From a phage, in the sequence record PX068454.1: DNA of 64,000 nucleotides. One strand, 5' to 3'. Each line of letters starts with the position of its first letter. Within the stretch, counting starts at the first letter, position 1. Both the position numbers and the translations under genes were made by a program. The notes below the pieces were generated by a model. The model saw only the letters and a program-made list of their open reading frames with translations. It was not told the DNA's origin and did no database searches. Below are positions 7,451 through 47,500 of this stretch, in pieces.

Positions 7451-8074
7451 TTATGAAAAACTCATCTCCCCATATTCATCCACATCAAACCGCCAATCAT
7501 TGGCTTCAATAAGGCCGATCAGGTTTTCGGTAGTAAACTGTTCAAGATAGGCCTCCTCCAGGTCTACATAAACCTTGCGGGATAGCTCCCGTACCGTCTC
7601 GGTGATCAGCTCTTCCAGATCTTCCACTTTATTTTCTTGTTTTGCGGTCAGATCTAGCCAGGTAGTATCAATATATCCGCTTACAGTGTTTTCATGGCTG
7701 TAATGGCTGTACTTGTCGCGTTCAACACTGGCTGATAGTTCGCCATCGTGCATTGTGCCGAACAAGTGACGAATTGATCGGAACTTGGTCAGGGCCTTGA
7801 CTTTACGCAAGAATTTCTCTAAGTCTACATTTTCAGCACTAATTGACGCGCCATCGCCTTGACACCAAAAGCCGGACCAATGTACATCGGTATCTTCAAG
7901 GCCGTACTCTGGAAAAACTTGTTCTTTATAATATTCAATTACACTTTCTGCGAAAAAATCCTCTCCGCTGTGTTCTTCTCTTTCGCGGACCATTTCAATA
8001 GCTTTTTCTTTTTGTTCGTCGGTCAGCACGTCGAAAGATAAATTGCAACCTGTGGTAATGTTAACGGTAGTCAT
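7451..8074 (-). CDS. hypothetical acidic protein (207 aa)
   Basis: ORF track; promoter and hairpin upstream. Confidence 0.6.
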   Translation of the reverse strand: MTTVNITTGCNLSFDVLTDEQKEKAIEMVREREEHSGEDFFAESVIEYYKEQVFPEYGLEDTDVHWSGFWCQGDGASISAENVDLEKFLRKVKALTKFRSIRHLFGTMHDGELSASVERDKYSHYSHENTVSGYIDTTWLDLTAKQENKVEDLEELITETVRELSRKVYVDLEEAYLEQFTTENLIGLIEANDWRFDVDEYGEMSFS

Positions 8075-8131
8075 GATATTTTCTCCTATTTTCTTTGTTA
8101 GTGGCGGGAAGTTTTCCCGCCTGTGTGTTTA

Positions 8132-8159
8132 AGTATACTTATTGAGGCTTACTTGTCAA
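8132..8159 (-). promoter_or_regulatory. sigma70-type promoter TTGACA-16-TATACT
   Basis: Followed by 5' UTR hairpin GGCGGGAA-N-TTCCCGCC at 8103-8121. Confidence 0.6.
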
Positions 8160-8161
8160 CA

Positions 8162-8410
8162 CTATTTTTTTAAATTATTGTGGCGTAAAATGTTTAGAAT
8201 CTCTTCAACGTCATCAACACGGCGGCAATTTTTAAACGCTACCAATTGCCCCATGATTTTAATCACTGGGCGGCCTTGCCAGTGCCCCTGGAGAAAGCGC
8301 GCCTTGACTTTATCGGTGGAACTATCACGCCACCAAATGGCCTTGTTGTTGCAGTAGTAAAAATTATTCAGGACAACATCAACTTTATCAAAATTTTTTA
8401 ATTTACGCAT
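8162..8410 (-). CDS. hypothetical protein (82 aa)
   Basis: ORF track. Confidence 0.5.
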   Translation of the reverse strand: MRKLKNFDKVDVVLNNFYYCNNKAIWWRDSSTDKVKARFLQGHWQGRPVIKIMGQLVAFKNCRRVDDVEEILNILRHNNLKK

Positions 8411-8442
8411 GGCGTTTACTCCTTTCTCTCTTTGATGTGGTT

Positions 8443-8470
8443 AGTATAGCTAACCTGTTTAAGATGTCAA
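8443..8470 (-). promoter_or_regulatory. sigma70-type promoter TTGACA-16-TATACT
   Basis: Hexamers read on minus strand upstream of CDS 8162-8410. Confidence 0.55.
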
Positions 8471-8612
8471 GCTTTAAATAAAATCACTGTCAATGATATT
8501 TTTAACGCCATAAAACGGCCCTAAGCGATGTTTTCAGGTTAAAGGGGGGCGATTGCATAGGTGGGGCCTTTTTGGCGCTTACAGGGCCAACCAGGGGCGC
8601 TATTCGTAGGAT

Positions 8613-8643
8613 AGAAATAAAAAGCCCCGCACAATGGCGGGGC
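8613..8643 (-). terminator. rho-independent terminator
   Basis: Hairpin GCCCCGCC-N-GCGGGGC followed on minus strand by TTTTTATTTCT. Confidence 0.55.
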
Positions 8644-8651
8644 GTTGGTTG

Positions 8652-8873
8652 TTATTTGTCTTTATGGCGGTATCGTTCTGCCTGTCGTTCACGTTCCAAA
8701 AGTAGGCCAGGCAATTTACGATCATAATGATTCCGCCAGATCTTCCCAAATCTTTTTGGCTTATTCAGTTTATTGTTGCGCTGGCGACGTTCCGGCAACT
8801 CTTCGGAATCATGAGGGCGCTTTACAATTTTTTCGAAATTAATTTTCATAACTTCCCCCCTTACTGATCTCAA
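8652..8873 (-). CDS. hypothetical basic protein (73 aa)
   Basis: ORF track. Confidence 0.45.
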   Translation of the reverse strand: MRSVRGEVMKINFEKIVKRPHDSEELPERRQRNNKLNKPKRFGKIWRNHYDRKLPGLLLERERQAERYRHKDK

Positions 8874-9210
8874 TATTTGCCTGAATCGCCCGGATACGCC
8901 GTTTTATAACCTCCTGATCCTTGCAATCATATCCCCAAAAGTCTACGATTTTTGCGCCTCCAGCCTTTAGGCGGTATAGTGTTTCTTGCATCTTGTAGGC
9001 CGGGATCGGTCGCGGTGTTACCTGGTCGCCCTTCTCATTCTTGTACTTGATAATGTAGTCTTCATTGTCGTTGAATACCCAAAATGGGTATTCTGTGAGC
9101 GCGTTGCTCTCTTTTTCGTTTTTAGATTGGATCTTGTTTACAATTAAAGCCGTAGCAATAGCGCCAATAATAAAACTTGCCCCACTGATCATGTTACTTT
9201 CTCCTTTCAT
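8839..9210 (-). CDS. membrane-anchored protein (123 aa)
   Basis: N-terminal hydrophobic helix ISGASFIIGAIATALIV. Confidence 0.55.
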   Translation of the reverse strand: MKGESNMISGASFIIGAIATALIVNKIQSKNEKESNALTEYPFWVFNDNEDYIIKYKNEKGDQVTPRPIPAYKMQETLYRLKAGGAKIVDFWGYDCKDQEVIKRRIRAIQANIEISKGGSYEN

Positions 9211-9268
9211 TGTATTGATAAACTATCTTTATAGATGGCCCTGCTACCAGGACCACCGAAAAAACAGT

Positions 9269-33724: not shown

Positions 33725-34909
33725 TCAAGCTTTAGCTAAAATGGCGCTAAACTCTTCACCAAACTCTTTTACAATCTTCATCAGGTTTGGGTATGCTTTG
33801 ATCAGCTGAGCAACGATCTTGTCCCTGCCTTTACCAATAAGTAAGGCATTTCCTAAGGCGTTAGGTTTCATCATCGCCATAAAGACTGAGAATACAAAGT
33901 CTCGGTTCTCATCCTTGAAATTTTCCCAAAGGAAATCAAGGAAGTTTGCCACACAGCTGACGAGATCTTCGTCGGAGATACTTGCATTTTCCATCATATT
34001 ACGAATAGCGATACAACCTTCAGACCCCAGAATCCACAAGATGTCTGGCTGCTTAGGACCTACATATTCTTTGCAGCCTCCTGCCATAATCCGACCGATT
34101 TCTGGCAAGTTTCGTTTCTTGGTGTGGTAGGTCCAAATTTCTACCGCTGCAGTGTGACCAATGGCACCTTGTAGAAGGACACGGGCCATAGCGTCAGAAA
34201 TAATACCGCTGTCAAAATCGTGCAAGATGTCAGATGCAGCAACCCAAGAGCGCGGTGTAGCAAAAGATGGACAATTAATCTCAGCCATGGCCTCATAATT
34301 ATCGATGGCCGATGGGACTCTTTTCAGATATCCAATTACCGAGGAGTGCACCCCATTAAGGAATGCATAGTCCTCAATAAACACCTCTGCACTGCTTGTA
34401 ACTTCTACAATGATAAAGCGGTTAGCTAGAGGAGCTTCGAGTGCCGAAAGAACAGCACCGTCTGTAGCACGGTTACCTGCAGCTACAAAAACAGAGCCTT
34501 TAGGAAATGCATAGGTGCCGCACTTGTGGTCGAGCATAATTTGCATTGCAACCTTCTGCAGGTAGTTATCTGCATGAGTAAGCTCGTCTAGAAAGATAAT
34601 TCCGCTCCAGTCCGGATCTGCAGGCCAAAATTCTGGAATTGCAAACACTGTACGTGTAGTTCCATCTGCCTCCACAGGGATAGGCAGTCCAGATAAGTCA
34701 GCAGGATCTTTATCTGACAACCGCACGTCAACCAGGTTGTCATCTCGCTCACCGAACATATTATCAGCAATCTGCTTCATCACCTGGCTCTTCCCCACGC
34801 CCATCGGTCCTAAAATCAGGACAGATCGGTTATGACGCTGGGCAAATTGAACAATGGCTGGCAACTCGCGGACAGTGATTTGACCACTTTCGAATACGTT
34901 TCTCGACAT
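33725..34909 (-). CDS. MoxR-like AAA+ ATPase (CobS-like)
   Basis: Walker A GPMGVGKS, Walker B IIFLDEL; 394 aa. Confidence 0.75.
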   Translation of the reverse strand: MSRNVFESGQITVRELPAIVQFAQRHNRSVLILGPMGVGKSQVMKQIADNMFGERDDNLVDVRLSDKDPADLSGLPIPVEADGTTRTVFAIPEFWPADPDWSGIIFLDELTHADNYLQKVAMQIMLDHKCGTYAFPKGSVFVAAGNRATDGAVLSALEAPLANRFIIVEVTSSAEVFIEDYAFLNGVHSSVIGYLKRVPSAIDNYEAMAEINCPSFATPRSWVAASDILHDFDSGIISDAMARVLLQGAIGHTAAVEIWTYHTKKRNLPEIGRIMAGGCKEYVGPKQPDILWILGSEGCIAIRNMMENASISDEDLVSCVANFLDFLWENFKDENRDFVFSVFMAMMKPNALGNALLIGKGRDKIVAQLIKAYPNLMKIVKEFGEEFSAILAKA

Positions 34910-36231: not shown

Positions 36232-36510
36232 TTAGGCAACTGTCATTTTACATTCTTGAAATTTTAGCACAAGACGGTGATTGTGTCTAGTGTCTAAAAA
36301 GATTTTTTCAACCATCAGGCACACGGTGTAACCGTCCATCTTGTTGACAACAAAATCCTCAGGGTGAGGGAGAATGTCCCCAGGATTGGGGAAACATAAC
36401 CCGCTCAAGAAGGCATCATCGGTGGTGGACCTGATGGATTTCCACACACTATCTGCCTGGACACTCTCACCAACATAATATACACTACCACATGCCTTCA
36501 TCATAGTCAA
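36232..36510 (-). CDS. hypothetical protein (92 aa)
   Basis: ORF track. Confidence 0.5.
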   Translation of the reverse strand: MTMMKACGSVYYVGESVQADSVWKSIRSTTDDAFLSGLCFPNPGDILPHPEDFVVNKMDGYTVCLMVEKIFLDTRHNHRLVLKFQECKMTVA

Positions 36511-37406
36511 ATCTCCGCGTAAATTAAACTGGAATCAGTATACTTCTTTAGTGGGTAAATATCCTGTCCATAGATGCCGTCATTAAACACCTCATCTACC
36601 CAAAGGCTACACTTATATCCCATCATCTCTAAAACACCCATCTCTTCTTCGGTAAACTTATCACCGCTCTTGCAAGATGTCAACACCTCATTCTGTACTC
36701 TTGCTACCTCGAAGCGATTATTGGCAATATCGCTATTAGCGATCAAATACTCACCCAAAGGGTGTGCGGCATTAAAGATGCACAGTGGACGGTTGACGTA
36801 ATAGTCTCCAGGTGTATAAAAATTATTGAGGTCTTTCACTAGAACATTCTTATCAGTCACTTCATTTATAACATCATGCATATCGCACATCTTTATATGT
36901 TTGAGGATTCCATCCCCCATCACAAAATAAAAACTTGCTGAAACACTTTCGGCATAGATCTTACTAGATCCGTTGTAGTTGTATTTTACTCGGATGCTAA
37001 CGGGGGTTTTTCCTGTCGCGTTAGCCATCATCCAAAGAAATGGCAGCTCATACTTCTCCTCTGAGGAAACAAAAGGTGAAGTAGCCAGAGATCGAAAACC
37101 TCCAGAGAAGTTGAAAGTTACAGAACCGCTCCGGCGGTATGATACTGCGTATTCTACTTTTATATCAACGTATCCGTTGGAGTAAGTATGCCCTCCATTA
37201 TCAAGGTATGTCCACTTATCAGACCCGGATACCAACCTCCGCTCAATTACCTTCATCACCATAGGAATTAGCGGATTAGTACAAACCGATCTTGAAGTAG
37301 CTTTATCATCCAAAGCCTCGTAAATTGCAGAAAGGATATCTCCAGCTGAAAGATTGGTTGTTATATCCTGTTGCCACCTGGTGCTAAAACTGTTAAGATT
37401 TGCCAT
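36507..37406 (-). CDS. hypothetical protein (299 aa), first gene of leftward operon
   Basis: ORF track; promoter 37447-37475 upstream. Confidence 0.6.
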   Translation of the reverse strand: MANLNSFSTRWQQDITTNLSAGDILSAIYEALDDKATSRSVCTNPLIPMVMKVIERRLVSGSDKWTYLDNGGHTYSNGYVDIKVEYAVSYRRSGSVTFNFSGGFRSLATSPFVSSEEKYELPFLWMMANATGKTPVSIRVKYNYNGSSKIYAESVSASFYFVMGDGILKHIKMCDMHDVINEVTDKNVLVKDLNNFYTPGDYYVNRPLCIFNAAHPLGEYLIANSDIANNRFEVARVQNEVLTSCKSGDKFTEEEMGVLEMMGYKCSLWVDEVFNDGIYGQDIYPLKKYTDSSLIYAEI

Positions 37407-37446
37407 GAATAAGTGCTCCTATGTTAGTTTTCTTTCGAATGGGTGC

Positions 37447-37475
37447 ACTATATCGGAGATTTAGAGTAAAGTCAA
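37447..37475 (-). promoter_or_regulatory. sigma70-type promoter TTGACT-17-TATAGT (leftward)
   Basis: Divergent partner of plus-strand promoter 37489-37517. Confidence 0.55.
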
Positions 37476-37488
37476 CACGTTTTTGAGG

Positions 37489-37517
37489 TTGACATCTCCC
37501 CAGGCTCTTGGTAAGAT
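37489..37517 (+). promoter_or_regulatory. sigma70-type promoter TTGACA-17-TAAGAT (rightward)
   Basis: Hexamers read directly; drives plus-strand block. Confidence 0.6.
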
Positions 37518-37548
37518 TTCTCCACCCACAGAGAACAAGAGACAACTC

Positions 37549-38538
37549 ATGAATCTTGAAAAATATTATACACCAGAAGAGTTAGAGCGCTTGCTCAAAA
37601 AATACAGACGCAAACAGAATAACGCACGGAAACGGGATATAGAGTTCAACCTGTCATGGGAAGAATATCTCCTATTTGGTAAAAAACTTTTAGGAGAGGG
37701 AGTATGCGACTATACCCTTATACCTTTCGACATGCACACAGATGAAAACGGACTGGGAAATCCTTTCTACCCATCTCTGGAGCGGATAGATGATGAAGGT
37801 CCTTATGCGGTTGATAATTGTTGTGTGGTGGGATTGAGATGCAACTCCCTAAAGGACTGCCTGGTAGATAAAAAGACCGCAGTCTTGATTAAAGACAAAA
37901 CTGATCGAAAAATTGTCCAGCAGATGATGCTCCACCTGAGCGAAGAGCGTATGGAGAAATTGAAAGGTGATTACACTTTTGAAGATTTCATCTTGCAATA
38001 TGGAACGGAAGAGGATAAACTGGCACTCTTTGACGAAGAATGGGAGGAAGATATGTCACCAATGCAGGATTTTAAAAACTTCATGGCTAATCGTGGAGCC
38101 AACAAGCACATTTCTGACATTGTAAACGAGCCTGTAGTAGAGGAGATTGAAGAGATGACGCAACAGGCTTACGAAGAGGAAAAAGAGCCTCAAGGGGTCG
38201 AAGAAGAGCTTACAGAAGAGGTTCCTGCACTGCCTGACGATGTTGAGATTGCCAAAGCTTACACTTTCTATTGCCAGACGTTCTACGATGCAGGTATGAA
38301 AGTTGATCTGTCCTTCAGCCAGTTTAAGAGCACATACATTCGAAAATGTTGTGCTTTAACTGGTGAGCGTCTCGGGGCCGGACTTAAACCACTATTAGTT
38401 ACCGACTGGAACAAAGGTTTCACCAAAGGTAACTTCATGGTAGTATCTCCAATCATGGAAAAGGCTATGACAGACCTTATGAAGACCACTCGCATGACAA
38501 TGACCGAGTTGGCTGGTATTTTCAAGCACGTTAAATAA
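37549..38538 (+). CDS. protein with two HNH_3-like endonuclease-type modules
   Basis: Likely ATG at 37549; motifs SLERIDDEGPYAVDNCCVVGLRCNSLK and a second related C-terminal module. Confidence 0.5.
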   Translation: MNLEKYYTPEELERLLKKYRRKQNNARKRDIEFNLSWEEYLLFGKKLLGEGVCDYTLIPFDMHTDENGLGNPFYPSLERIDDEGPYAVDNCCVVGLRCNSLKDCLVDKKTAVLIKDKTDRKIVQQMMLHLSEERMEKLKGDYTFEDFILQYGTEEDKLALFDEEWEEDMSPMQDFKNFMANRGANKHISDIVNEPVVEEIEEMTQQAYEEEKEPQGVEEELTEEVPALPDDVEIAKAYTFYCQTFYDAGMKVDLSFSQFKSTYIRKCCALTGERLGAGLKPLLVTDWNKGFTKGNFMVVSPIMEKAMTDLMKTTRMTMTELAGIFKHVK

Positions 38539-38571
38539 TGACAGGGGCCATTGGCCCCTTCTGGAGTTTTA

Positions 38572-40032
38572 ATGGATAGCAGAAGTTCAGAAATCATTAC
38601 CGCACAAAAAGATGATGCCTTGCGAATGCTGCAGGCCGCTCGCATGTACCTTCTTGAAAAGCTGCCGTTTTATGGCACACTGTTGTCAGGGTTGCAGTTC
38701 GTAGAAAACCACACATGGTGCTCCACTATGGCAACAGACCATAAACGCATCTACTACAGCCCTGAGTTCATTATGGGGTTGGCAGATGAGCGTAAAACCA
38801 TTCTTAAAGCATCTCTGACTGACAAGCAGTTTGAGATGGCTGAGGTTTTCTATTCCCCAAAATCTGTGAAAGAGGTGGCCTTTCTTCTGTCACATGAGGT
38901 GGGGCATATTATCTGTGATCATCTGGTCCGTGGTAAAAGCTTTGAGCCGGAACTGTTCAATATTGCTTGTGATCACGTTATCAACACAGGTCTTGTGGTT
39001 GACTTTAGCAAGCCTCCTTGTGTTTTCTTCCCGAAGGGGAAAAGCACTGAGTTCGTAAAAGGTAAGCCTTTTGGCTTCTTAGCTAGTTGCTACTGTGACA
39101 TGAAGTTTCATGGATGGATTGCTGAGAACGTCTATGCAGTTCTTGATAAACAAAGAGATCAGAATGGCGGTAAAAGTAAGAACGGTAAAGGTGAGAACTC
39201 CCAAGGAGATAAACGACAAACCGATGATCACATGAGGGGGAACGGTGGCACCAGTGATGATCTTGGAAAGGCTATGGGGTATGATCAGCCGCAACCAGTA
39301 ATCAGTCAATCTGATAAAGATCAGGCCATGCAGGACTCTGGTGACATGTTGGAAGCAGCAATGCAAGCTTCAGGAGGTCGTTGCCCTGAGGCGGTGCGCG
39401 AGTTTGTCAAAAACAAAGGCAAGCCTGTAATCAACTATATAGATATTATTAAGCAACGTATGTTGTCTAAACGAAAGGCCGAGCTAACCTACAGAAAACC
39501 TGGTCGCCGATCTGGGTCTTTGACCACCACAATGCGAAAAGTTGGAGCTATAAACAAGAATCAACACGTTATTGTTCCTGGTCGTAATCCGGAAAACACC
39601 ATAGATATTGTAGTGGCTTTGGACGTTTCTGGATCGATCTCGCAAAGAACTTTAAAGAAAATGTTCAATGAGATCACCGGGTTGTGCAATTTGTATAAAG
39701 AGTTTAAGGTTACGATGTTCTGTTGGTCAACCGAGGTTGGAGAGGTTAAAGTATACACTCGCGGTAACATCGATGAGATGATCAACTATGAGGTCCACTC
39801 AACATGGGGCACAACAGCCGCCTGCGTGTTCGAGTATCTGGATGCTAACATACCGAATGCAAAAGATGTCATCGTCCTTACCGACCTCTACTTTGAGCAT
39901 AACTTTGAACAAAAGGCTGTTGACAACAAGTGGAAAAAGTACGATACTTTATGGGTTCTCACCGAAGGGTATAATAAAAATTATATCCCGAGCTTTGGGA
40001 AAACTGTGGAATTAATCGAGTATGCTAAGTAA
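38572..40032 (+). CDS. vWA-domain protein with N-terminal HExxH metallopeptidase-like domain (CobT-like)
   Basis: HEVGH zinc-binding motif; MIDAS motif DVSGSIS; ATG at 38572 after hairpin. Confidence 0.7.
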   Translation: MDSRSSEIITAQKDDALRMLQAARMYLLEKLPFYGTLLSGLQFVENHTWCSTMATDHKRIYYSPEFIMGLADERKTILKASLTDKQFEMAEVFYSPKSVKEVAFLLSHEVGHIICDHLVRGKSFEPELFNIACDHVINTGLVVDFSKPPCVFFPKGKSTEFVKGKPFGFLASCYCDMKFHGWIAENVYAVLDKQRDQNGGKSKNGKGENSQGDKRQTDDHMRGNGGTSDDLGKAMGYDQPQPVISQSDKDQAMQDSGDMLEAAMQASGGRCPEAVREFVKNKGKPVINYIDIIKQRMLSKRKAELTYRKPGRRSGSLTTTMRKVGAINKNQHVIVPGRNPENTIDIVVALDVSGSISQRTLKKMFNEITGLCNLYKEFKVTMFCWSTEVGEVKVYTRGNIDEMINYEVHSTWGTTAACVFEYLDANIPNAKDVIVLTDLYFEHNFEQKAVDNKWKKYDTLWVLTEGYNKNYIPSFGKTVELIEYAK

Positions 40033-40047
40033 GAGAGGATAGTATTT

Positions 40048-40305
40048 ATGGCAACAGAGGTAGTAATTAAAGCTGAACGCCCAGTTAAAAAAGCTATCAA
40101 CACGTTCCCTGTAGGAACCATTGTGAGCATGATTACAGAGTCAGGCCGTGTATCTACACTGCTAATCGTGAAATCTGCATGCTCATCTTGTGTGTGGGCA
40201 TACGATCTTGACGAGAAAGAACTGAAAGATTTTGTCGGGGAGCTGAAAGCAACAGAGCTTGACGCTCGTATCGAAGTATTTGGTGAAACTATGGAGGAAG
40301 AGTAA
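40048..40305 (+). CDS. small protein, tandem paralog 1 (85 aa)
   Basis: Shares FxxG(T/E)(I/V)V pattern with the next two ORFs. Confidence 0.5.
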   Translation: MATEVVIKAERPVKKAINTFPVGTIVSMITESGRVSTLLIVKSACSSCVWAYDLDEKELKDFVGELKATELDARIEVFGETMEEE

Positions 40306-40568
40306 TGACTACAAAAATCACCATTGCAGAACCAAAAGCTAACACGCAACCTATCGAAAAGTTTAAATGCGGTGAGGTGGTAACATTCACACCAGATAAT
40401 GAAGATGCCAAGATTTTTGCCATGGTTACAGCCGAGTGGATGTGTGACAATACCACACAGGTGCTGCGTTTTGACACCTATCTTACAGATGAAATCAGGA
40501 ACGACAAGATCGTGACTGGTGTGGATACTGAGATTATTTTCTACAAGAGCTTTTTAGAGGGTTTCTGA
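40305..40568 (+). CDS. small protein, tandem paralog 2 (87 aa)
   Basis: ORF track; shared pattern. Confidence 0.5.
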   Translation: MTTKITIAEPKANTQPIEKFKCGEVVTFTPDNEDAKIFAMVTAEWMCDNTTQVLRFDTYLTDEIRNDKIVTGVDTEIIFYKSFLEGF

Positions 40569-40569
40569 T

Positions 40570-40803
40570 ATGGCAAAAATTCGTAAATTATCCAGCAATC
40601 AGGTTGTGAAAGACTTTGAATCTGGAGAGATCTTGTATGTCCGTGATGCAGATGATGAATGTGAAGATCTTGTTATGCTGGTAGGGTACGCTGAAGACGG
40701 ATGCATCCAGGCTGTTTTTCTTGAAACAGCGATGGTGCACTGGATAGAGCTGGACCTGAAAGCACGAAAACCTAAAGCAGAAATCATTATTTACGAAGAT
40801 TAA
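40570..40803 (+). CDS. small protein, tandem paralog 3 (77 aa)
   Basis: ORF track; shared pattern. Confidence 0.5.
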   Translation: MAKIRKLSSNQVVKDFESGEILYVRDADDECEDLVMLVGYAEDGCIQAVFLETAMVHWIELDLKARKPKAEIIIYED

Positions 40804-40819
40804 CAAGAAGGAGAGAGCC

Positions 40820-41269
40820 GTGTTGAGCAAACGTGAATGCGACAGCATTAGCCTGAATTCTTATAAAAAACAATGGTTTGGGGTAGAAGTTTGCCGACTA
40901 CGGCTGGGCTCCTACTTGAACTTCGTCCATTATGAGAGTGACAGTCGTATCGTTTCTTATGAAGTGTTCTACACTAAGAATACATTCGAGCTGAGACGTA
41001 AGGTGGATGGCGGGAGATCTGCCGCCCAGAATAATTGGGAAACTATTCTGCCTCCAGATGTTATAGGAAGTCCCCTGAATGTATCTGAAGATGAAAATCT
41101 TATGGTTCATGCTATGATGGGACTTGACAGCTTAGAGCTGGCGATCTATGATATGTCCATCGAAGCAGTTAAGTTGGACTACATCGAAAACACTTTAGAG
41201 GAAGGTATCAAGAAGTTTCTCGGTGAGAAATTGAAAGCCCACTTTCATAAGGAGCTATATCTGTTATGA
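40820..41269 (+). CDS. hypothetical protein (149 aa)
   Basis: ORF track. Confidence 0.55.
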   Translation: MLSKRECDSISLNSYKKQWFGVEVCRLRLGSYLNFVHYESDSRIVSYEVFYTKNTFELRRKVDGGRSAAQNNWETILPPDVIGSPLNVSEDENLMVHAMMGLDSLELAIYDMSIEAVKLDYIENTLEEGIKKFLGEKLKAHFHKELYLL

Positions 41270-41511
41270 AGACCCGTAAAGAACGTAACAAGATTTTACC
41301 TGGCGCTCTCGAACACATGATGAAGTGCAGATCTATCTGGCACTCTGCCAAGGAGGGCCAGCATGTGGTCGTGGTTAGTGATAATGTCAACCCGTTCGGT
41401 GATTATGTCACCATGATGACTCCATACATCCGCGACGGTGTTGTGGAAGTGGTTCCTTATAACGGTCTGCATGAGAGGCATTTTGAGAGCACTTTGCTAG
41501 TGGAGCTATAA
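41266..41511 (+). CDS. hypothetical protein (81 aa)
   Basis: ORF track. Confidence 0.5.
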   Translation: MKTRKERNKILPGALEHMMKCRSIWHSAKEGQHVVVVSDNVNPFGDYVTMMTPYIRDGVVEVVPYNGLHERHFESTLLVEL

Positions 41512-41513
41512 TT

Positions 41514-41834
41514 ATGGCGGTCAATGTGGCTTACAACACAGGAAAGCTTGACAGAGACATTGGGTGTCTTGTCCTTTCAGATACAGAGGAGTATTGGGGT
41601 TATGGGTTGCTGTCAGACCCACACCCGAGCAACCTTGTATCAACGGTGCTCTATCGCTACGACCCTGTACCAACGGTGCACGACAAAGATATTCACGACC
41701 TTCGGATCAAGTGTCTGGAAGATCTTCTGAACAATGGCTGCAACGATCTGCGGGTAGCCAAGGAGAAGCTTACAAACATTCACAAAGAGGAAGTGATGAG
41801 CACCCTCAGTAAGAGGTCAGTGCACAAAAGATGA
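41514..41834 (+). CDS. hypothetical protein (106 aa)
   Basis: ORF track. Confidence 0.5.
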   Translation: MAVNVAYNTGKLDRDIGCLVLSDTEEYWGYGLLSDPHPSNLVSTVLYRYDPVPTVHDKDIHDLRIKCLEDLLNNGCNDLRVAKEKLTNIHKEEVMSTLSKRSVHKR

Positions 41835-42079
41835 TGTTAAACTTTGCGATGGGTATCTACATGGATGGGTATAAGGGAGGGGATCCGATCCTCAAGCTTC
41901 GCTGCCCAACACTGTGGGAAAGAGTGGTTGACAGTAAAGACGGTACTGCCCTGCTAGAACTCCACACTGCAGGTTGGATTTGGCGGTATGTAGACGGATA
42001 CCCTCTGTGGGCATGTGGGCCTGGGGAATTTGTTGACAGACCTAGCGCGGTAGTGGATTTGCTATTGCAGTTTGAATAA
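41831..42079 (+). CDS. hypothetical protein (82 aa)
   Basis: ORF track. Confidence 0.5.
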   Translation: MMLNFAMGIYMDGYKGGDPILKLRCPTLWERVVDSKDGTALLELHTAGWIWRYVDGYPLWACGPGEFVDRPSAVVDLLLQFE

Positions 42080-42135
42080 AAGGTGAGTTATAAAGCATTC
42101 ATACACCTATCAACAATACAACAAGAGAGACTGAG

Positions 42136-42411
42136 ATGACGAAAGAAGAAGCTGACGTATTAGACTTTGCACTGGAGGCTACGCAGGAGGCTTTGGTGTT
42201 AGCTTGGAAAATGAACCAGCGTGCTGCAGAATGCAACCGCCGCATCAATGAGATCCTGGGTATGTCTATGTATGATTTCACCATGCATGCTGGAGAGATT
42301 CCTGAATTAACTGCTGAGATGAATGATCTTGACAATAAAATTAATATCATTCTGAAGACAGCAGAAACAACTCACCAAACCGCCCGTAAATTTATCAACG
42401 AGAAGGTGTGA
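42136..42411 (+). CDS. hypothetical protein (91 aa)
   Basis: ORF track. Confidence 0.5.
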   Translation: MTKEEADVLDFALEATQEALVLAWKMNQRAAECNRRINEILGMSMYDFTMHAGEIPELTAEMNDLDNKINIILKTAETTHQTARKFINEKV

Positions 42412-42413
42412 AT

Positions 42414-42878
42414 ATGGACTACAGCTACTGCGGAGAAGAAGTACCTTTTAACTACAGCAATCTCACCACGAGTAATCCATATGAGACTCGTCACGGCACA
42501 CACATCATTGCTATTGACTTTGATGGAACGTTTAATGCGAGCCCTTTCATCTTCTCCCGCCTTATTAAGGACCTGAAGAAGGAAGGGTGGACAGTCTATC
42601 TTGTGACTTCCCGATTTATCACTCAAGACAACGTGGACATCGAATACTGGCGCAAGGAGCTTGATGTTGGTGTGTTTTATACTGGGGGTGTTCAGAAGGC
42701 AGCCTATCTGGCGCAGTTTGATATCTACCCAGATATCTGGATTGATGATTCTCCGGCATGTATTCCGGCTAAGAATCAGTTAGAGTTTGCAATGAAGGAG
42801 ATCGAGTATAAGTCTGAGGCTAAGCGGAACGGATGGCCCTTTATTATTGAAGATTACCCAGATCCTGAACCGGAGTAA
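42414..42878 (+). CDS. HAD-superfamily hydrolase-like protein (putative nucleotidase or phosphatase)
   Basis: HAD motif I IAIDFDGT; ATG at 42414 after RBS GAGAAGG. Confidence 0.5.
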   Translation: MDYSYCGEEVPFNYSNLTTSNPYETRHGTHIIAIDFDGTFNASPFIFSRLIKDLKKEGWTVYLVTSRFITQDNVDIEYWRKELDVGVFYTGGVQKAAYLAQFDIYPDIWIDDSPACIPAKNQLEFAMKEIEYKSEAKRNGWPFIIEDYPDPEPE

Positions 42879-42883
42879 GAGCC

Positions 42884-43054
42884 ATGAGGCGAAGATATTA
42901 TTACCTGATGTGGAAGTTATATCAAAATGCTGCCAAAGCCTATCATACCATGTTTGGCAATGACGATCACTACATCATGTTACATCTCACCGCTATTAAG
43001 CATCACAATGAGTGGATTCATGCAATCGTGGCAGGTGATAAAGACTTTAAGTAA
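42884..43054 (+). CDS. hypothetical protein (56 aa, not in ORF track)
   Basis: RBS GGAG then ATG; translation MRRRYYYLMWKLYQNAAKAYHTMFGNDDHYIMLHLTAIKHHNEWIHAIVAGDKDFK. Confidence 0.3.
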   Translation: MRRRYYYLMWKLYQNAAKAYHTMFGNDDHYIMLHLTAIKHHNEWIHAIVAGDKDFK

Positions 43055-43180
43055 AATATGCCTTAAAACGCAACAGGAGTCCCTGTAGCGCACTTAACTC
43101 ACCGCAGGCATAAGATTGCATTGCTAGGTAGTTTTGTGCATCATTTTAGTTACAGAGCTTTCTAGACGGAGACTGATTAA

Positions 43181-43561
43181 ATGTGCAAGTGTAAATCCTA
43201 TAATTGGAAAGTGAAAGGTGCCAAGCATCCAAATGTTATCGTTGATGTGCCTAAAAAACTTCGAGACGGCAAAAAACGTGTGTGCCTTGATAAGTGCATG
43301 GCTAAGCCTATCATGAGTCTATGGGCGGCAGGATTGAAAACTCTAAACTGCTGCTGTGGTCATAACAAAGATGTTCCAAGCATCATTATCCCAGAGGATG
43401 CAGACCCTAAAGCTTATGCCAAAATATTGACCCGCTACCCCAGCACCTTTCTGATCGGAAAATGGTGTCACGATGAACTTCAATGGTGGATAGCGTACGG
43501 CAGTGTAGGTGCTGCTTTTGGCTTCCCAGCTTTGTCAGAGCGCTACGTCAAAGCATCATAA
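43181..43561 (+). CDS. Cys-rich hypothetical protein (126 aa)
   Basis: ORF track. Confidence 0.5.
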   Translation: MCKCKSYNWKVKGAKHPNVIVDVPKKLRDGKKRVCLDKCMAKPIMSLWAAGLKTLNCCCGHNKDVPSIIIPEDADPKAYAKILTRYPSTFLIGKWCHDELQWWIAYGSVGAAFGFPALSERYVKAS

Positions 43562-43666
43562 TCTGTTTTAAGGCCTCAAACGAGGCCTGTGCCTTCAATA
43601 ACTCTACCCTCTCTTGTGATTACACTCACCTTTCAAAAAACTTCCCCAAAACGCTTAAAAATGTTG

Positions 43667-43696
43667 TTGACAGCAAACACCCCAGTTTGCTATTCT
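43667..43696 (+). promoter_or_regulatory. sigma70-type promoter TTGACA-18-TATTCT
   Basis: Hexamers read directly upstream of CDS 43730-44059. Confidence 0.45.
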
Positions 43697-43729
43697 CATT
43701 ATCACAGATACAGAACGGAGTAACAAAAA

Positions 43730-44059
43730 ATGGCACATGTGAATATTAAACTACATTATCATGGTAGAAAACCAAAATATCCAATGCATAAAGTATTTTG
43801 GGGGTTGCATATCCAAGAAAAAGAAGGTATTGGTTACTGGTTTTGTGACCACGATAGACAATGGCATACCCATGAAGAAGTGTGCACTATGATGGAGCAG
43901 GGTATTAAATTTAATTTCTCAAACTATGATCATGGTGTTAATTGCATTCGAAAATTGAAACGATTTCTTAGAAAGAATCCTGAACTTAAAGGGCTTACAT
44001 TCTTTATGTCTCATAACTACATGGGGTATAGCGCTACTGTAACTGCAAGGATTAAGTAA
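43730..44059 (+). CDS. hypothetical protein (109 aa)
   Basis: ORF track. Confidence 0.5.
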   Translation: MAHVNIKLHYHGRKPKYPMHKVFWGLHIQEKEGIGYWFCDHDRQWHTHEEVCTMMEQGIKFNFSNYDHGVNCIRKLKRFLRKNPELKGLTFFMSHNYMGYSATVTARIK

Positions 44060-44060
44060 T

Positions 44061-44279
44061 ATGAGCAAAGTAAAATTTGTTAAATTTAAAAATCCTAACG
44101 GAATAACAGCCCTTATGATGGGTGTACACTTTACACCGGGCAAAGAGTATGAGGCAGATGTATACAATGGGATAGATGGTAAAGTTGGGATAGGTGTGTG
44201 GACAAACCGTGGAGAAAGATACTTTATCAAGGATATGGATGCTCACTGGGGTATTTGGGAAGTTGTTGGAGATCTGTGA
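44061..44279 (+). CDS. hypothetical protein (72 aa)
   Basis: ORF track. Confidence 0.5.
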   Translation: MSKVKFVKFKNPNGITALMMGVHFTPGKEYEADVYNGIDGKVGIGVWTNRGERYFIKDMDAHWGIWEVVGDL

Positions 44280-44348
44280 TGATGAAATGAAATACTGTTT
44301 CTTCGGCAATATGTAATATAGATTGGTTAAATATGGAGACTGATAGAG

Positions 44349-44549
44349 ATGGCTGATTTTTGTAAAGACTGTTCTGAAGAGTTGTTTGGTTTTGACTGCA
44401 AAGATTTGGAAGGTCTGATCACTGAGGATCAGTGGAAGGAAGGCTATGCAGCACCTGTTATTTGTGAAGGTTGTGGCTATACCTATGTTGACCATAAAGG
44501 TAAGCGCGTCAAGCCGTCTGAAGATGGGGCATGTTGGGAGTATTACTAA
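44349..44549 (+). CDS. Cys-rich zinc-ribbon-like protein (66 aa)
   Basis: CKDC and CEGCG motifs. Confidence 0.5.
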   Translation: MADFCKDCSEELFGFDCKDLEGLITEDQWKEGYAAPVICEGCGYTYVDHKGKRVKPSEDGACWEYY

Positions 44550-44560
44550 CTATAAAAAGA

Positions 44561-44590
44561 AAGGGGCCATTTGGCCCCCTTTTTTATCTA
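44561..44590. terminator. bidirectional rho-independent terminator between convergent blocks
   Basis: Hairpin GGGGCC-ATTT-GGCCCC flanked by A-run upstream and T-run downstream. Confidence 0.7.
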
Positions 44591-44597
44591 CTCCTTG

Positions 44598-47500
44598 TTA
44601 AAGAGAGAAAGTCGCGTAGGCTCCCAGACGATACTGCTGGTCACCAGGGAACATAACACCTATAGAGGCTGTCCCTAGAATCCTGCCTTCCTTTCCAGAC
44701 TCCATTCTGAACCCTACCCATCCTGAACTCCTTGCAGCCTCGATGTTGTCGCTATACCCGAAAGTGGCAAGATCGTCAACACCAGCCCCAAACAGCAACT
44801 GAAGCTGACTTCTCGGAAGCCCTATAATTTCAGGAATATACGCACCAAAGTACACCATCTGCCCTACCTTAGGACCGCTGCCGTACTCCATCGGTTTGCT
44901 TGTAGAGAAAGTCTTCATACCAGAAGTACCTGCCGGATTAGGGTATGCCCCGTTTGTTGCTGTACCTATCCACATTCTCCACTGTGGTGCCATCTGTTTG
45001 ACAGTAAAAGATGTTGAAGACGTTTTGCGACCTGCATCATCAGTAGCTACAAACGTTATAGTGACATTACCAGGAGCTTTAAATGTTACCAGCCCTGTGG
45101 TAGCATCCACTGTTGCAATGTTGGTATTACTGCTTTCCCAAGTCTTTCTAATCCCAGACACATTGGAAGGGGTAATAGAAGGTTCCTGCATCTGCAGTTT
45201 ACCACCTACAATCCCTATGCCGTTACCGGGGTTATACAACACACCAACTTCATCTATAATGTTACCTGCCTTGAGACTATACTTCCTTGAGAAGTTGTAA
45301 GTTCCGTTATAAGTGTGTGTCCCTGAGAAGGTGACATCTGCTTTTCCGTAAGAGATGCAAACCAAAGCATACTTCCTGTCAGGCAACGTTTCTCCAGTCT
45401 CTGGGTGAGTTTTACCTACCTGGAACACACCCGGGTCAGTGGAGTCGTGGCTATCACTAACGGAGCTTGGACCACCCATCAGCTGTGACAAGCAATTCCT
45501 TACCCATGTCCAGTTATTATCGCTGGAGAAGTCCACAGTCAAATCAAACACAACCCACTCATTTGGCTTCCACACAGGTGTTGTAATGGACTTGCCTACG
45601 CCACCCCCTTGGAGTGTTGCCGACTGTTCGGTGATCAGGGCTGCATAGGCCAGAGTCCCTAAACTCAGAGTCTGGCTTGCTGTCCTTACTACCTTAGAAT
45701 CAGCATCTGTGAAGTTGTTGATTATTTGGAATGTGCCATAAGTGTTTTTACAGGTAATTCTGGCGTTCAGTGTGTCAATCTTCCTCACATCTGCCATAGC
45801 AGCGTTAGACACAGAGAAGTCAGAAGCTTTAGCTGAGTTTGCCGCAACAGCAGGATCAACGTTAAGAGTTGCGTTGAACTGACAGGCAGGGGTAACCAGC
45901 AGCTTGTTATCACCTATTTGCTTCCATGAAACACTTTGAACAGGAAGATTCCATTTAATACCTGAGAAAACTTTAGCAACCCTTGGCCCCAAAGCTCCAG
46001 TCCTGTTGTCTTTACAGCACATAGACATGGTGATCGTTGACGGAGCGGCTTGACCAAACAATTGCTGCGCTTTTGCAGAGGACATAGTGTAGAAATTGTC
46101 CTTAACAAACTCATCAGCAGCTAGAGATCCGTCAGCCCTCCACCACTGAACCTGATACCCTGTTTTATCCCAGCCTCCGACCTGCTTCAAGTCCTCCCAA
46201 GAGATTTCCAGATCCCCCGTGGTCGGGTTGATTGCAGCGGTCCCTGGTGTACCGGATGACCACAATGGGATATCAAACCACGCAGGTTTAACAGATTGCA
46301 CTGCATTAGGACCTATTGCAGCAGCAAGTTGTTGACCCATCAGCACGCGAGCATCTTTCACCAGGCCCCATTCTATCATAGATCCAGAGTAACCTTCTTT
46401 CTTGTAGGCAGAGGATCCGTTCAAATGGATGAGCCTGCTGCAGTCGAAGCCATACGCTCCACCACCGTTAGGATCTGCAAAGTTGGTTATGATTCTATCC
46501 CTAATATTTTTCCATGCCCTACCTCCAATCTCGTAGTCATGGTCATAACATCTTTGCAACGTTGTCCAGCAAATGATTGCCATTCTTCTGCCACCTGTGA
46601 ACCCGAAAGCGCCGTCATTCAGCTCTTTCCACAGGTAACAGTTGGTTGTCCACATAGCCCTGTGGATATTGAACCAGTTTATAGATTTAGCGGAGTTGTT
46701 CCACTGAGTTCCGGGTAATTCAGGCCACACTGCATTGACTAGCATGTCCTCTGTACCGGCATCCATTAAGAAACCTCTTACCTTCTTGCCCATACCTGCC
46801 CTGTCTTTAGCAATCCAATTGCCAAACAGTCTCAGTTTTGGACCATAAACAACATCCTCTGGGTGCTCAAAAGAGACATACTTTAAGTAGATTGTTGGGT
46901 CACCGTGGGTGCCATCACAAACACTTTTGTGCATGTTTTCGCCAAGGTCTAGACGAAGCCCCGTCACTACTTTAGACGTGTCGGTGAATTTGTCTGTTAA
47001 GTCAAATTCATACCACCACCACCCACCACCTAGCATAAATTTCTTGCATCGCACAGCGTCTGTGTCAGATATTCTCTTATCCCCTGCAAAAGGTGAATCA
47101 GCAAACTGATAGTGCAGAGCAGTCTCAAATAGGTGGGTGGAAGTTCCGTTCTCTGCAAGAACTTGCTTACCTATCAGATCGCACTTAATGATCATCACAA
47201 CACGCTTGTATCCGTTTGTTACCGGAACTTGCATAGATATGGATGTTCCATCCATGTTCGATCTTAGATCACTCATGATGATATAGGGGTCGACAGCGTT
47301 ACCTAAAGTTTCAGGCCCTGGAATTATCTTGTATTTCTTGACCTGGCCCATAAATCTGTCACTGGCGTAAGTTGCAGCCTCAAAACAAGAGCCACCACCA
47401 GGTAATTCTCCGGGTCCCCAGAAAAATGCCCCATAGCAGTTATAGAACCACTTATTAGGGTCGTATTTGTTCTTGAAGGTCTGGACCTCGTTGGCCTGTT

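Follow-up and report, generated by a model that had tools for sequence, protein, structure and literature searches.

Why a run of about 7 kb of rightward genes lies between two leftward gene modules is the question raised by the phage sequence PX068454.1, of which 64,000 nucleotides (the window) were analysed. This run (the block, positions 37,447 to 44,590) had been taken in a first-pass annotation for a candidate accessory island, mobile or concerned with the host and headed by an HNH protein. Our results favour another reading, to which we give a probability of roughly 0.75: the block is a conserved, rightward, sigma70-driven unit of the genus Vequintavirus that encodes non-structural proteins, in which an old backbone (an Srd-like protein, a vWA-peptidase, the g06 protein and a HAD-like protein) is accompanied by two plastic spots. 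The result is mainly corrective: in a large lytic phage, small open reading frames (ORFs) that run opposite to their neighbours do not have to form an island.

A megablast search with positions 36500-45500 matched 122 phage records, 113 of them with 90-97% identity over 80% or more of the query. Nearly all of the matched records are from Escherichia phages of the genus Vequintavirus (rV5-like), and on this similarity we assign the window to a Vequintavirus genome; the record nearest to the block is ECO111 5-P (95.5-96.5% identity). Sixteen ORFs on the + strand tile positions 37549-44549 and are flanked by - strand modules. One gene is split by a frameshift, giving a count of 15 genes, which agrees with the 14 to 15 rightward genes counted earlier. 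The annotation of the relative JohannBauhin places the block between a leftward arm (a 299-amino acid (aa) protein, MoxR ATPase, cell-wall hydrolase, rIIA, rIIB, helicase, methyltransferases, primase and DNA polymerase) and leftward tail-fibre and baseplate genes, and the opposite orientation between replication and tail modules was thus correctly described. The GC skew is positive only over 37-45 kb and negative across the remaining window, whereas GC content is 0.41-0.47 in the block and 0.42-0.48 in the flanks; there is no compositional shift, and the sign of the skew alone flips, along with the direction of transcription.

This arrangement has been described before. Kropinski et al. (2013, Virol J 10:76, PMC3606486) proposed four transcriptional units for rV5, one being 'genes 11-26', and the rV5 RefSeq record has the promoter P11 before ORF11 ('Srd-like protein'), ORF11-ORF26 in rightward orientation and, ahead of the leftward ORF27, rho-independent terminators on either strand. 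In a tblastn table the homologues of ORF11-ORF26 are collinear in the window, the exceptions among the 15 genes (here g01 to g15) being g13, which is extra, and g14, which replaces part of gp25. Judged by this collinearity, the block is the 'genes 11-26' transcription unit, a feature already known from 2013. The two share gene order, back-to-back promoters, the position of an internal promoter before the last genes and a GGGGCC...GGCCCC bidirectional terminator. They differ in that the window, whose DNA reaches only about 93-96% identity to database members, has g13 and a short g14 where rV5 has gp25, carries a frameshifted gp19 homologue, and has an intact vWA gene, which is split into ORF12 and ORF13 in the rV5 record. 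The same paper had already named gp11 an Srd homologue and gp12 a DUF2201_N protein; its Table S4 includes P010, P011, P020, P025 and t026/t027, and its Table S3 marks no gene 11-26 product as a virion protein by mass spectrometry.

Both edges of the unit were recovered as first described, namely a divergent promoter pair (37447-37517) and a bidirectional terminator (44560-44581). The leftward sigma70-like promoter (37447-37475, - strand; TTGACT-17-TATAGT) is the equivalent of rV5 P010, whose sequence in Table S4 is essentially identical. The rightward sigma70-like promoter (37489-37517, + strand; TTGACA-17-TAAGAT with an extended -10) is at the position where rV5 annotates P11 (P011), and a promoter at this position was also predicted by PhagePromoter in phage Gotham. 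The intrinsic terminator at 44560-44581, which is common to the block and the convergent tail-fibre gene and corresponds to rV5 t026/t027, consists of the hairpin GGGGCC-ATTT-GGCCCC and scores on both strands because T-runs flank both sides of the hairpin. A further GC-rich hairpin (AGGGGCC-ATT-GGCCCCT; 38543-38559, + strand) lies between g01 and g02 and is kept in eight of the nine Vequintavirus genomes checked, FV3 being without it; it is a possible attenuator or RNA-stabilising element. An Rfam scan of 36-46 kb matched no family. Note that the GGGGCC/GGCCCC stem after g01 is identical to that at the end of the unit, and that between strains the hairpin loops alone flip to the reverse complement (ATT/AAT; ATTT/AAAT; GTTT/AAAC), as if palindromic hairpins invert.

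The block is present in all nine Vequintavirus genomes compared, with at least 87% protein identity in every one of them for 12 of the 16 ORFs, and the position and boundaries of the whole block are constant among the about 114 phage records of more than 90% identity. In Seunavirus (GAP31) and Mydovirus (Mydo and AV124), a leftward arm with the MoxR ATPase likewise diverges from a rightward arm headed by the g01 homologue. Order and strand are preserved in GAP31, Mydo and AV124 (g01 at 39-40% identity, g02 at 43-47%, g06 directly downstream of g02, and later g10 at 42%), the identity of g06 being about 25-32% over partial alignments. At the Certrevirus locus examined (PBES02), the g01 homologue was not found. 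No direct or inverted flanking repeats bracket the block, only short scattered repeats at chance level being present, and none of the 16 ORFs matched a recombinase family in Pfam or PHROG. This shared frame, order and strand across genera, together with the absence of bracketing repeats and of recombinase or Rfam matches, argues that the block is not a recently inserted or mobile island. On the same comparisons, the frame of the block and at least four of its genes appear to be older than the split of Vequintavirus, Seunavirus and Mydovirus. Patchy presence is limited to g13, the g14 variant and an extra g03-type copy, and the block as a whole is not patchy. The word accessory holds for the tandem g03-g05 array and the 3' segment g13-g15, not for the remainder. 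Synteny in relatives with essential structural or replication genes had been named as the observation that would speak against an island; the block is indeed conserved and syntenic, yet nothing marks its genes as structural or replication factors.

The first gene, g01 (37549-38538, + strand; 329 aa), is the homologue of rV5 gp11 and had been described as a protein with two HNH_3-like modules, often associated with mobile insertions. In Pfam no family, HNH_3 included, was matched at E <= 0.1, and NCBIfam gave no relevant match. In PHROG, g01 falls in phrog_3118, with weaker matches to the families 'Srd anti-sigma factor', 'decoy of host sigma70' and 'endonuclease VII' (E 1e-10 to 1e-12 against PHROG 4592 and 1400). 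A tblastn search with its N-terminal 142 residues reaches genes of T4-like phages annotated as Srd or sigma decoy, and a profile of twelve g01 relatives aligned with Srd of Pseudotevenvirus PF-CE2 at 97.4% probability in hhalign (E 1e-11, 32% identity), the motif VC-Y-G-PF...(L/M)ERI..GY..N..V...N..K being common to this Srd and the N module of g01. An AlphaFold2 model (mean pLDDT 78.9) has two folded modules separated by an acidic linker of low confidence (residues ~165-227), taken as disordered; the modules have the beta-beta-alpha-metal (HNH) fold, and the N and C modules align mutually in register (P = 0.002). The family alignment has the motif S-x-E-R-I-D and no invariant or near-invariant His column. 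The two modules are therefore HNH-like as a fold and not as members of HNH_3. Sequence searches of solved structures with g01 and g10 gave noise only, and a large-database search found 26 g01 homologues, none with Pfam domains.

In every relative that has it, from its own genus and from three genera besides, the g01 homologue is the first gene of the unit. From the model and these alignments, g01 is an HNH-fold protein, histidine-less and with the fold apparently duplicated, that is homologous to Srd of T4-like phages. A homing HNH endonuclease was considered for g01 and ruled out, because g01 has no conserved His and no HNH_3 or other Pfam match, and because its first-gene position is fixed, with no sporadic, intron-like or intein-like insertion; its presence is accordingly no sign of mobility. 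By analogy with T4 Srd, which stimulates RNase E and so hastens host mRNA decay (Qi et al. 2015, as cited in PMC7430671), g01 looks like a host-takeover protein rather than a homing nuclease. RNase E stimulation is known for T4 Srd only, and older annotation calls this protein a 'decoy of sigma70/sigmaS' or an anti-sigma factor. The likeness between g01 and the T4 Srd family lies in the homologous N-terminal module and in a location amid non-structural genes, whereas g01 differs from T4 Srd in being 329 aa long, in repeating the module in a second, degenerate form and in having an acidic linker of about 60 residues. The histidine-less motif S/M-ERI...GY...N...N..K is seen both in Srd of Enterobacter phage PF-CE2 (524-1051 of the locus examined) and in window positions 37549-37890. 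To judge from the g01 model, Srd proteins as a family may represent an HNH domain that has been inactivated, and if T4 Srd shares this modelled degenerate fold, it would offer a structural handle on the engagement of RNase E.

The second gene, g02 (38572-40032, + strand; 486 aa), is the N4 gp25-like homologue of rV5 gp12 and is a metallopeptidase joined to a vWA domain, as had been recognized. Its Pfam matches are DUF2201_N (1.4e-28, 100.7 bits against a cut-off of 23.2) and DUF2201 (3.2e-11, 43.9 bits against 26.4), and both of its motifs are intact, HEVGH at residue 108 (HExxH) and DVSGS at residue 351 (MIDAS DxSxS). By tblastn, g02 is found in 618 phage records, from all Vequintavirinae genera, 121Q-type jumbo phages, phage G and N4-like phages ('N4 gp25-like'). 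In the rV5 RefSeq record (locus positions 7756-9217) the gene consists of ORF12 (441 aa) and an overlapping ORF13 (81 aa), while it is a single 486-aa ORF in the window and in other relatives; the split in the old rV5 sequence is probably a frameshift or a sequencing error.

The predicted partner of g02 lies outside the block. It is a MoxR-type AAA+ ATPase (33725-34909, - strand; PHROG 1297) with Walker A at residue 34 and Walker B at residue 104; its Pfam AAA and bpMoxR matches are weak and below their cut-offs, and rV5 gp4 is annotated as MoxR. In Vequintavirus, Seunavirus and Mydovirus (GAP31, Mydo and AV124), the MoxR and vWA genes are on opposite arms of the divergent promoter, being 3.7 kb apart in the window, whereas they adjoin on the same strand in Certrevirus Cronobacter phage PBES02 (7680-10545 of the locus examined). 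That the genes are split in three genera and adjacent in a fourth makes co-regulation of the pair testable. In N4-like phages, gp24 and gp25 (vWFA) are among the 14 core genes and are middle transcripts, and Iyer et al. (2021) described in jumbo phages a pair of a MoxR AAA+ ATPase and a vWA protein with an N-terminal metallopeptidase, for which they proposed a chaperone role in virion assembly. These pairs resemble ours in the fusion of a DUF2201_N metallopeptidase to vWA, in intact HExxH and MIDAS motifs, in a MoxR-type partner and in core-gene status, and differ from it in that the Vequintavirus, Seunavirus and Mydovirus genes are split by a divergent promoter. By this homology, g02 is predicted to be half of a conserved two-gene system with a core function, cooperating with a MoxR ATPase encoded elsewhere. 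A partner outside the block argues against a self-contained cassette.

The remaining backbone gene with a candidate function is g10 (42408-42878, + strand), the homologue of rV5 gp21, which is conserved in Seunavirus and Mydovirus and whose true start may be the ATG at 42414. The residues invariant in its family alignment are D37-F-D39-G-T41 (motif I, DxDxT), T67, K97 and D113-D114, the last three sites being likely counterparts of HAD motifs II-IV. Profile scans gave no Pfam family and an NCBIfam HAD-IIB score of 15.5 bits against a cut-off of 41.8; the HAD-like hydrolase noted earlier is supported by its motif set, but by no profile above its curated cut-off, and we regard g10 as a HAD-like phosphatase candidate.

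The following course of events is proposed. After injection, the host sigma70 holoenzyme would start at the two back-to-back promoters, the leftward arm giving MoxR, rIIA/B and the replication genes and the rightward arm giving the block. Rightward transcription would pass the conserved hairpin after g01, would be reinforced by internal promoters (the equivalents of rV5 P020 and P025), and would end at the bidirectional terminator common to the convergent late tail-fibre operon. The g01 protein, with its two catalytically dead HNH-fold modules, is predicted from the T4 Srd analogy to target RNase E or RNA polymerase of the host and so to shut the host down. The g02 protein, a zinc-metallopeptidase with vWA, would have the MoxR AAA+ ATPase encoded on the divergent arm as its partner, in the way that N4 gp24 and gp25 seem to cooperate, and g06 may be a third component of this system. 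The g10 protein would serve as a small HAD-type phosphatase, and about ten further small, mostly acidic proteins would be made. Only two spots are evolutionarily plastic, the tandem g03-g05 array and the promoter-equipped g13-g15 segment, the latter trading genes with T4-like, FelixO1-like and T5-like coliphages. The host-interaction part of the earlier proposal is thus still plausible, because of the sigma70 promoters, the Srd homologue, the many small acidic proteins and the lack of mass-spectrometry evidence for rV5 gp11-26 in the virion.

Several points weigh against this reading. The inferred early timing depends on consensus promoters, which the rV5 authors found across the whole genome; Srd-like activity of g01 is extrapolated from about 32% identity over one module; and for 11 of the 15 genes the sister-genus loci examined yielded no homologue, so that 'ancestral' strictly applies to the frame and four genes. 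The N4 gp24/25 homologues are middle genes for whose jumbo-phage counterparts Iyer et al. propose a role in assembly, and part of the block may be morphogenetic. Literature searches turned up no transcriptomic, timing, essentiality or DUF2201 functional data for rV5-like phages.

Among the alternatives, the one that survives best concerns the two plastic spots, which may be diversifying genes for anti-defence or superinfection exclusion, set in an operon that is otherwise housekeeping, 'accessory' then being right for about 1.7 of the 7 kb. We regard this as possible, at clearly less than even odds. The first spot comprises g03 (40048-40305, + strand; 85 aa), g04 (40305-40568, + strand; 87 aa) and g05 (40570-40803, + strand; 77 aa), small acidic proteins with a pI of about 4.5 that had been reported as three tandem paralogues. 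An all-against-all BLASTP comparison of the block proteins detected no paralogy, g03-g05 included. A hidden Markov model from three g03-type sequences gave 16 bits for g04, a distant paralogue of g03, and only 3-5 bits for g05, whereas the Smith-Waterman score of g04 against g05 had z = 4.8, a value reached by none of 300 shuffles. Support for paralogy is thus modest, with g05 a possible third member, and the copy number is three or four depending on the strain: Gotham-type strains have two g03-type copies, about 40% identical to g03 of the window, and hence an array of four. Strains that share 93-100% identity elsewhere differ by about 60% in their g03-type copies, as diversifying genes might. 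The sister-genus loci have no detectable homologue of g03-g05, and g06 comes straight after the vWA gene there; the array thus counts as an insertion specific to the genus.

The second spot is set off from g12 by a hairpin and a sigma70-like promoter (43667-43696, + strand; TTGACA-18-TATTCT) at the position of rV5 P025, where a promoter was also predicted in Gotham. The accessory gene g13 (43730-44059, + strand) occurs in 30 Vequintavirus records, about a quarter of those of the genus, rV5, Gotham, ECP32 and MiataMamis being among the phages that lack it; outside the genus it is found in 59 RB49-group T4-like phages (Krischvirus) at 58-70% protein and about 76% DNA identity. The variable gene g14 (44061-44279, + strand) corresponds, at about 49% identity, to the C-terminal part of rV5 gp25 (135 aa), a fused variant present in other strains. 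Like g15, it has counterparts in other coliphage groups. The last gene, g15 (44349-44549, + strand; 66 aa), is the homologue of rV5 gp26, has two CxxC pairs, and is found in 836 records over several virulent phage groups, the copies in Felixounavirus and T5-like phages being 60-72% identical. With its own promoter and terminator, this segment of about 1 kb has the layout and distribution of a mosaic, moron-like zone. On the other side, no protein of g03-g05 or g13-g15 received a family or structural assignment, and variability alone is no indicator of function; an anti-defence role for these genes accordingly stays tentative. For therapeutic rV5-like phages it is relevant that the real accessory spots are narrowed to these two, about 1.7 kb in all.

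The main rival to the conserved sigma70-driven unit, which we consider unlikely, is that the MoxR partner vWA-metallopeptidase, g06 and their neighbours form a middle or late chaperone/protease module for the assembly or processing of tail fibres and not for host takeover. The proposal of Iyer et al. for jumbo phages cites a requirement for MoxR-vWA in tail development of ATV, N4 gp24/25 are middle-class core genes that adjoin a second structural module in roseophages, and the block abuts tail-fibre genes. The PHROG label of g06 is 'tail protein'; this gene (40820-41269, + strand) encodes a phrog_6790 protein whose homologue lies directly downstream of the vWA gene in sister genera, the pairing in Certrevirus being a sub-threshold match only (E 0.31) at the syntenic position. 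This label has no experimental basis, however, and neither g06 nor any other of gp11-26 was found by mass spectrometry of rV5 virions. The block also converges on the tail-fibre operon and is not co-transcribed with it, shares its strong sigma70 promoter region with the rII/replication arm, and begins with an Srd homologue. The putative late-promoter motif of rV5, TGGTAAAATA, has 14 matches against 6.9 expected, scattered and uninformative, and in the block a near-match is seen only once, just upstream of g15. This is TGGTTAAATA at 44324-44333 (+ strand), 15 nucleotides upstream of the g15 start and one mismatch away from TGGTAAAATA; it could be a second, late expression signal for g15, or chance.

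Somewhat less probable still is that the head of the unit (the double pseudo-HNH Srd-like protein, the vWA-metallopeptidase, g06 and the divergent MoxR) is an unrecognised early host-manipulation system, with g03-g05 as a diversifying anti-defence family. If so, a MoxR-driven vWA-peptidase would remodel or cleave host targets, for example components of defence or RNA decay, and would not serve virion assembly. That the phage acquired all 7 kb horizontally, as a mobile accessory island (a moron or an anti-defence cassette, perhaps HNH-mobilised), is highly improbable and already largely refuted, since the opposite orientation and discrete edges of the block, the HNH fold of g01, the numerous small ORFs of unknown function and the 3' genes common to unrelated phages are set against a constant site and edges in about 114 records, a backbone syntenic over three genera at about 40-47% identity (g06 about 25-32%) that implies vertical descent, the lack of flanking repeats, GC shift or recombinase match, a g01 without invariant His or HNH Pfam match at a fixed position, and a vWA gene predicted to pair functionally with MoxR outside the block.

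The other genes of the conserved unit were characterized as follows. The homologues of rV5 gp18 and gp20 are g07 (41266-41511, + strand) and g09 (42136-42411, + strand), and g11 (42884-43054, + strand) encodes a 56-aa basic protein that is the most divergent in the genus (73-96%). The homologue of rV5 gp19, g08 (41514-42079, + strand), is split into ORFs of 106 aa (g08a) and 82 aa (g08b) with an overlapping ATGA stop/start. The split is due to a 1-nucleotide deletion (A5 to A4 at 41826-41829), and the gene is intact, with 188 aa, in all nine relatives. Programmed frameshifting at this A-run was considered and rejected; all nine relatives have an in-frame A5, and a 1-nucleotide deletion or sequencing error is simpler. 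What is seen is either a sequencing error or a real split or pseudogene, and the latter would imply that the gene is dispensable. The homologue of rV5 gp24, g12 (43181-43561, + strand), is a 126-aa basic, Cys-rich protein with 8 Cys. It had been described, together with g15, as zinc-ribbon-like; the cysteine patterns are real, but scans of Pfam, PHROG and NCBIfam assigned neither g12 nor g15 to a family, and none matched as a zinc ribbon. The large-database search found 5 homologues of g10 and 11 of g12, none with Pfam domains, and allowed no functional transfer for g12. In the Pfam and NCBIfam scans of the block ORFs, of which NCBIfam covered six, the vWA protein only was matched.

Several database labels at this locus should be read with caution. 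RefSeq and phrog_1314 wrongly call the vWA-metallopeptidase an 'HNH endonuclease', several records call it an 'anti-sigma factor', and these widely copied labels for gp11/gp12 homologues are misleading. The 'tail protein' label is placed without evidence on g06 and also, in sister genera, on a small gene unrelated to it. The leftward arm begins with a gene for a 299-aa protein (36507-37406, - strand) that is commonly annotated 'putative alpha 1-3 fucosyltransferase', a label that one record puts over the g01 homologue; Pfam and NCBIfam gave no match at E <= 0.1 for this 299-aa protein, which falls only in phrog_12338, a PHROG of unknown function. Some host labels look unreliable as well. About 16-19 records titled 'Campylobacter phage' are 92-98% identical to the block of E. 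coli Vequintavirus, and the g15 copies in 'Staphylococcus phage SA1' and 'Listeria phage LM 4-14-1' are FelixO1-like or T5-like.

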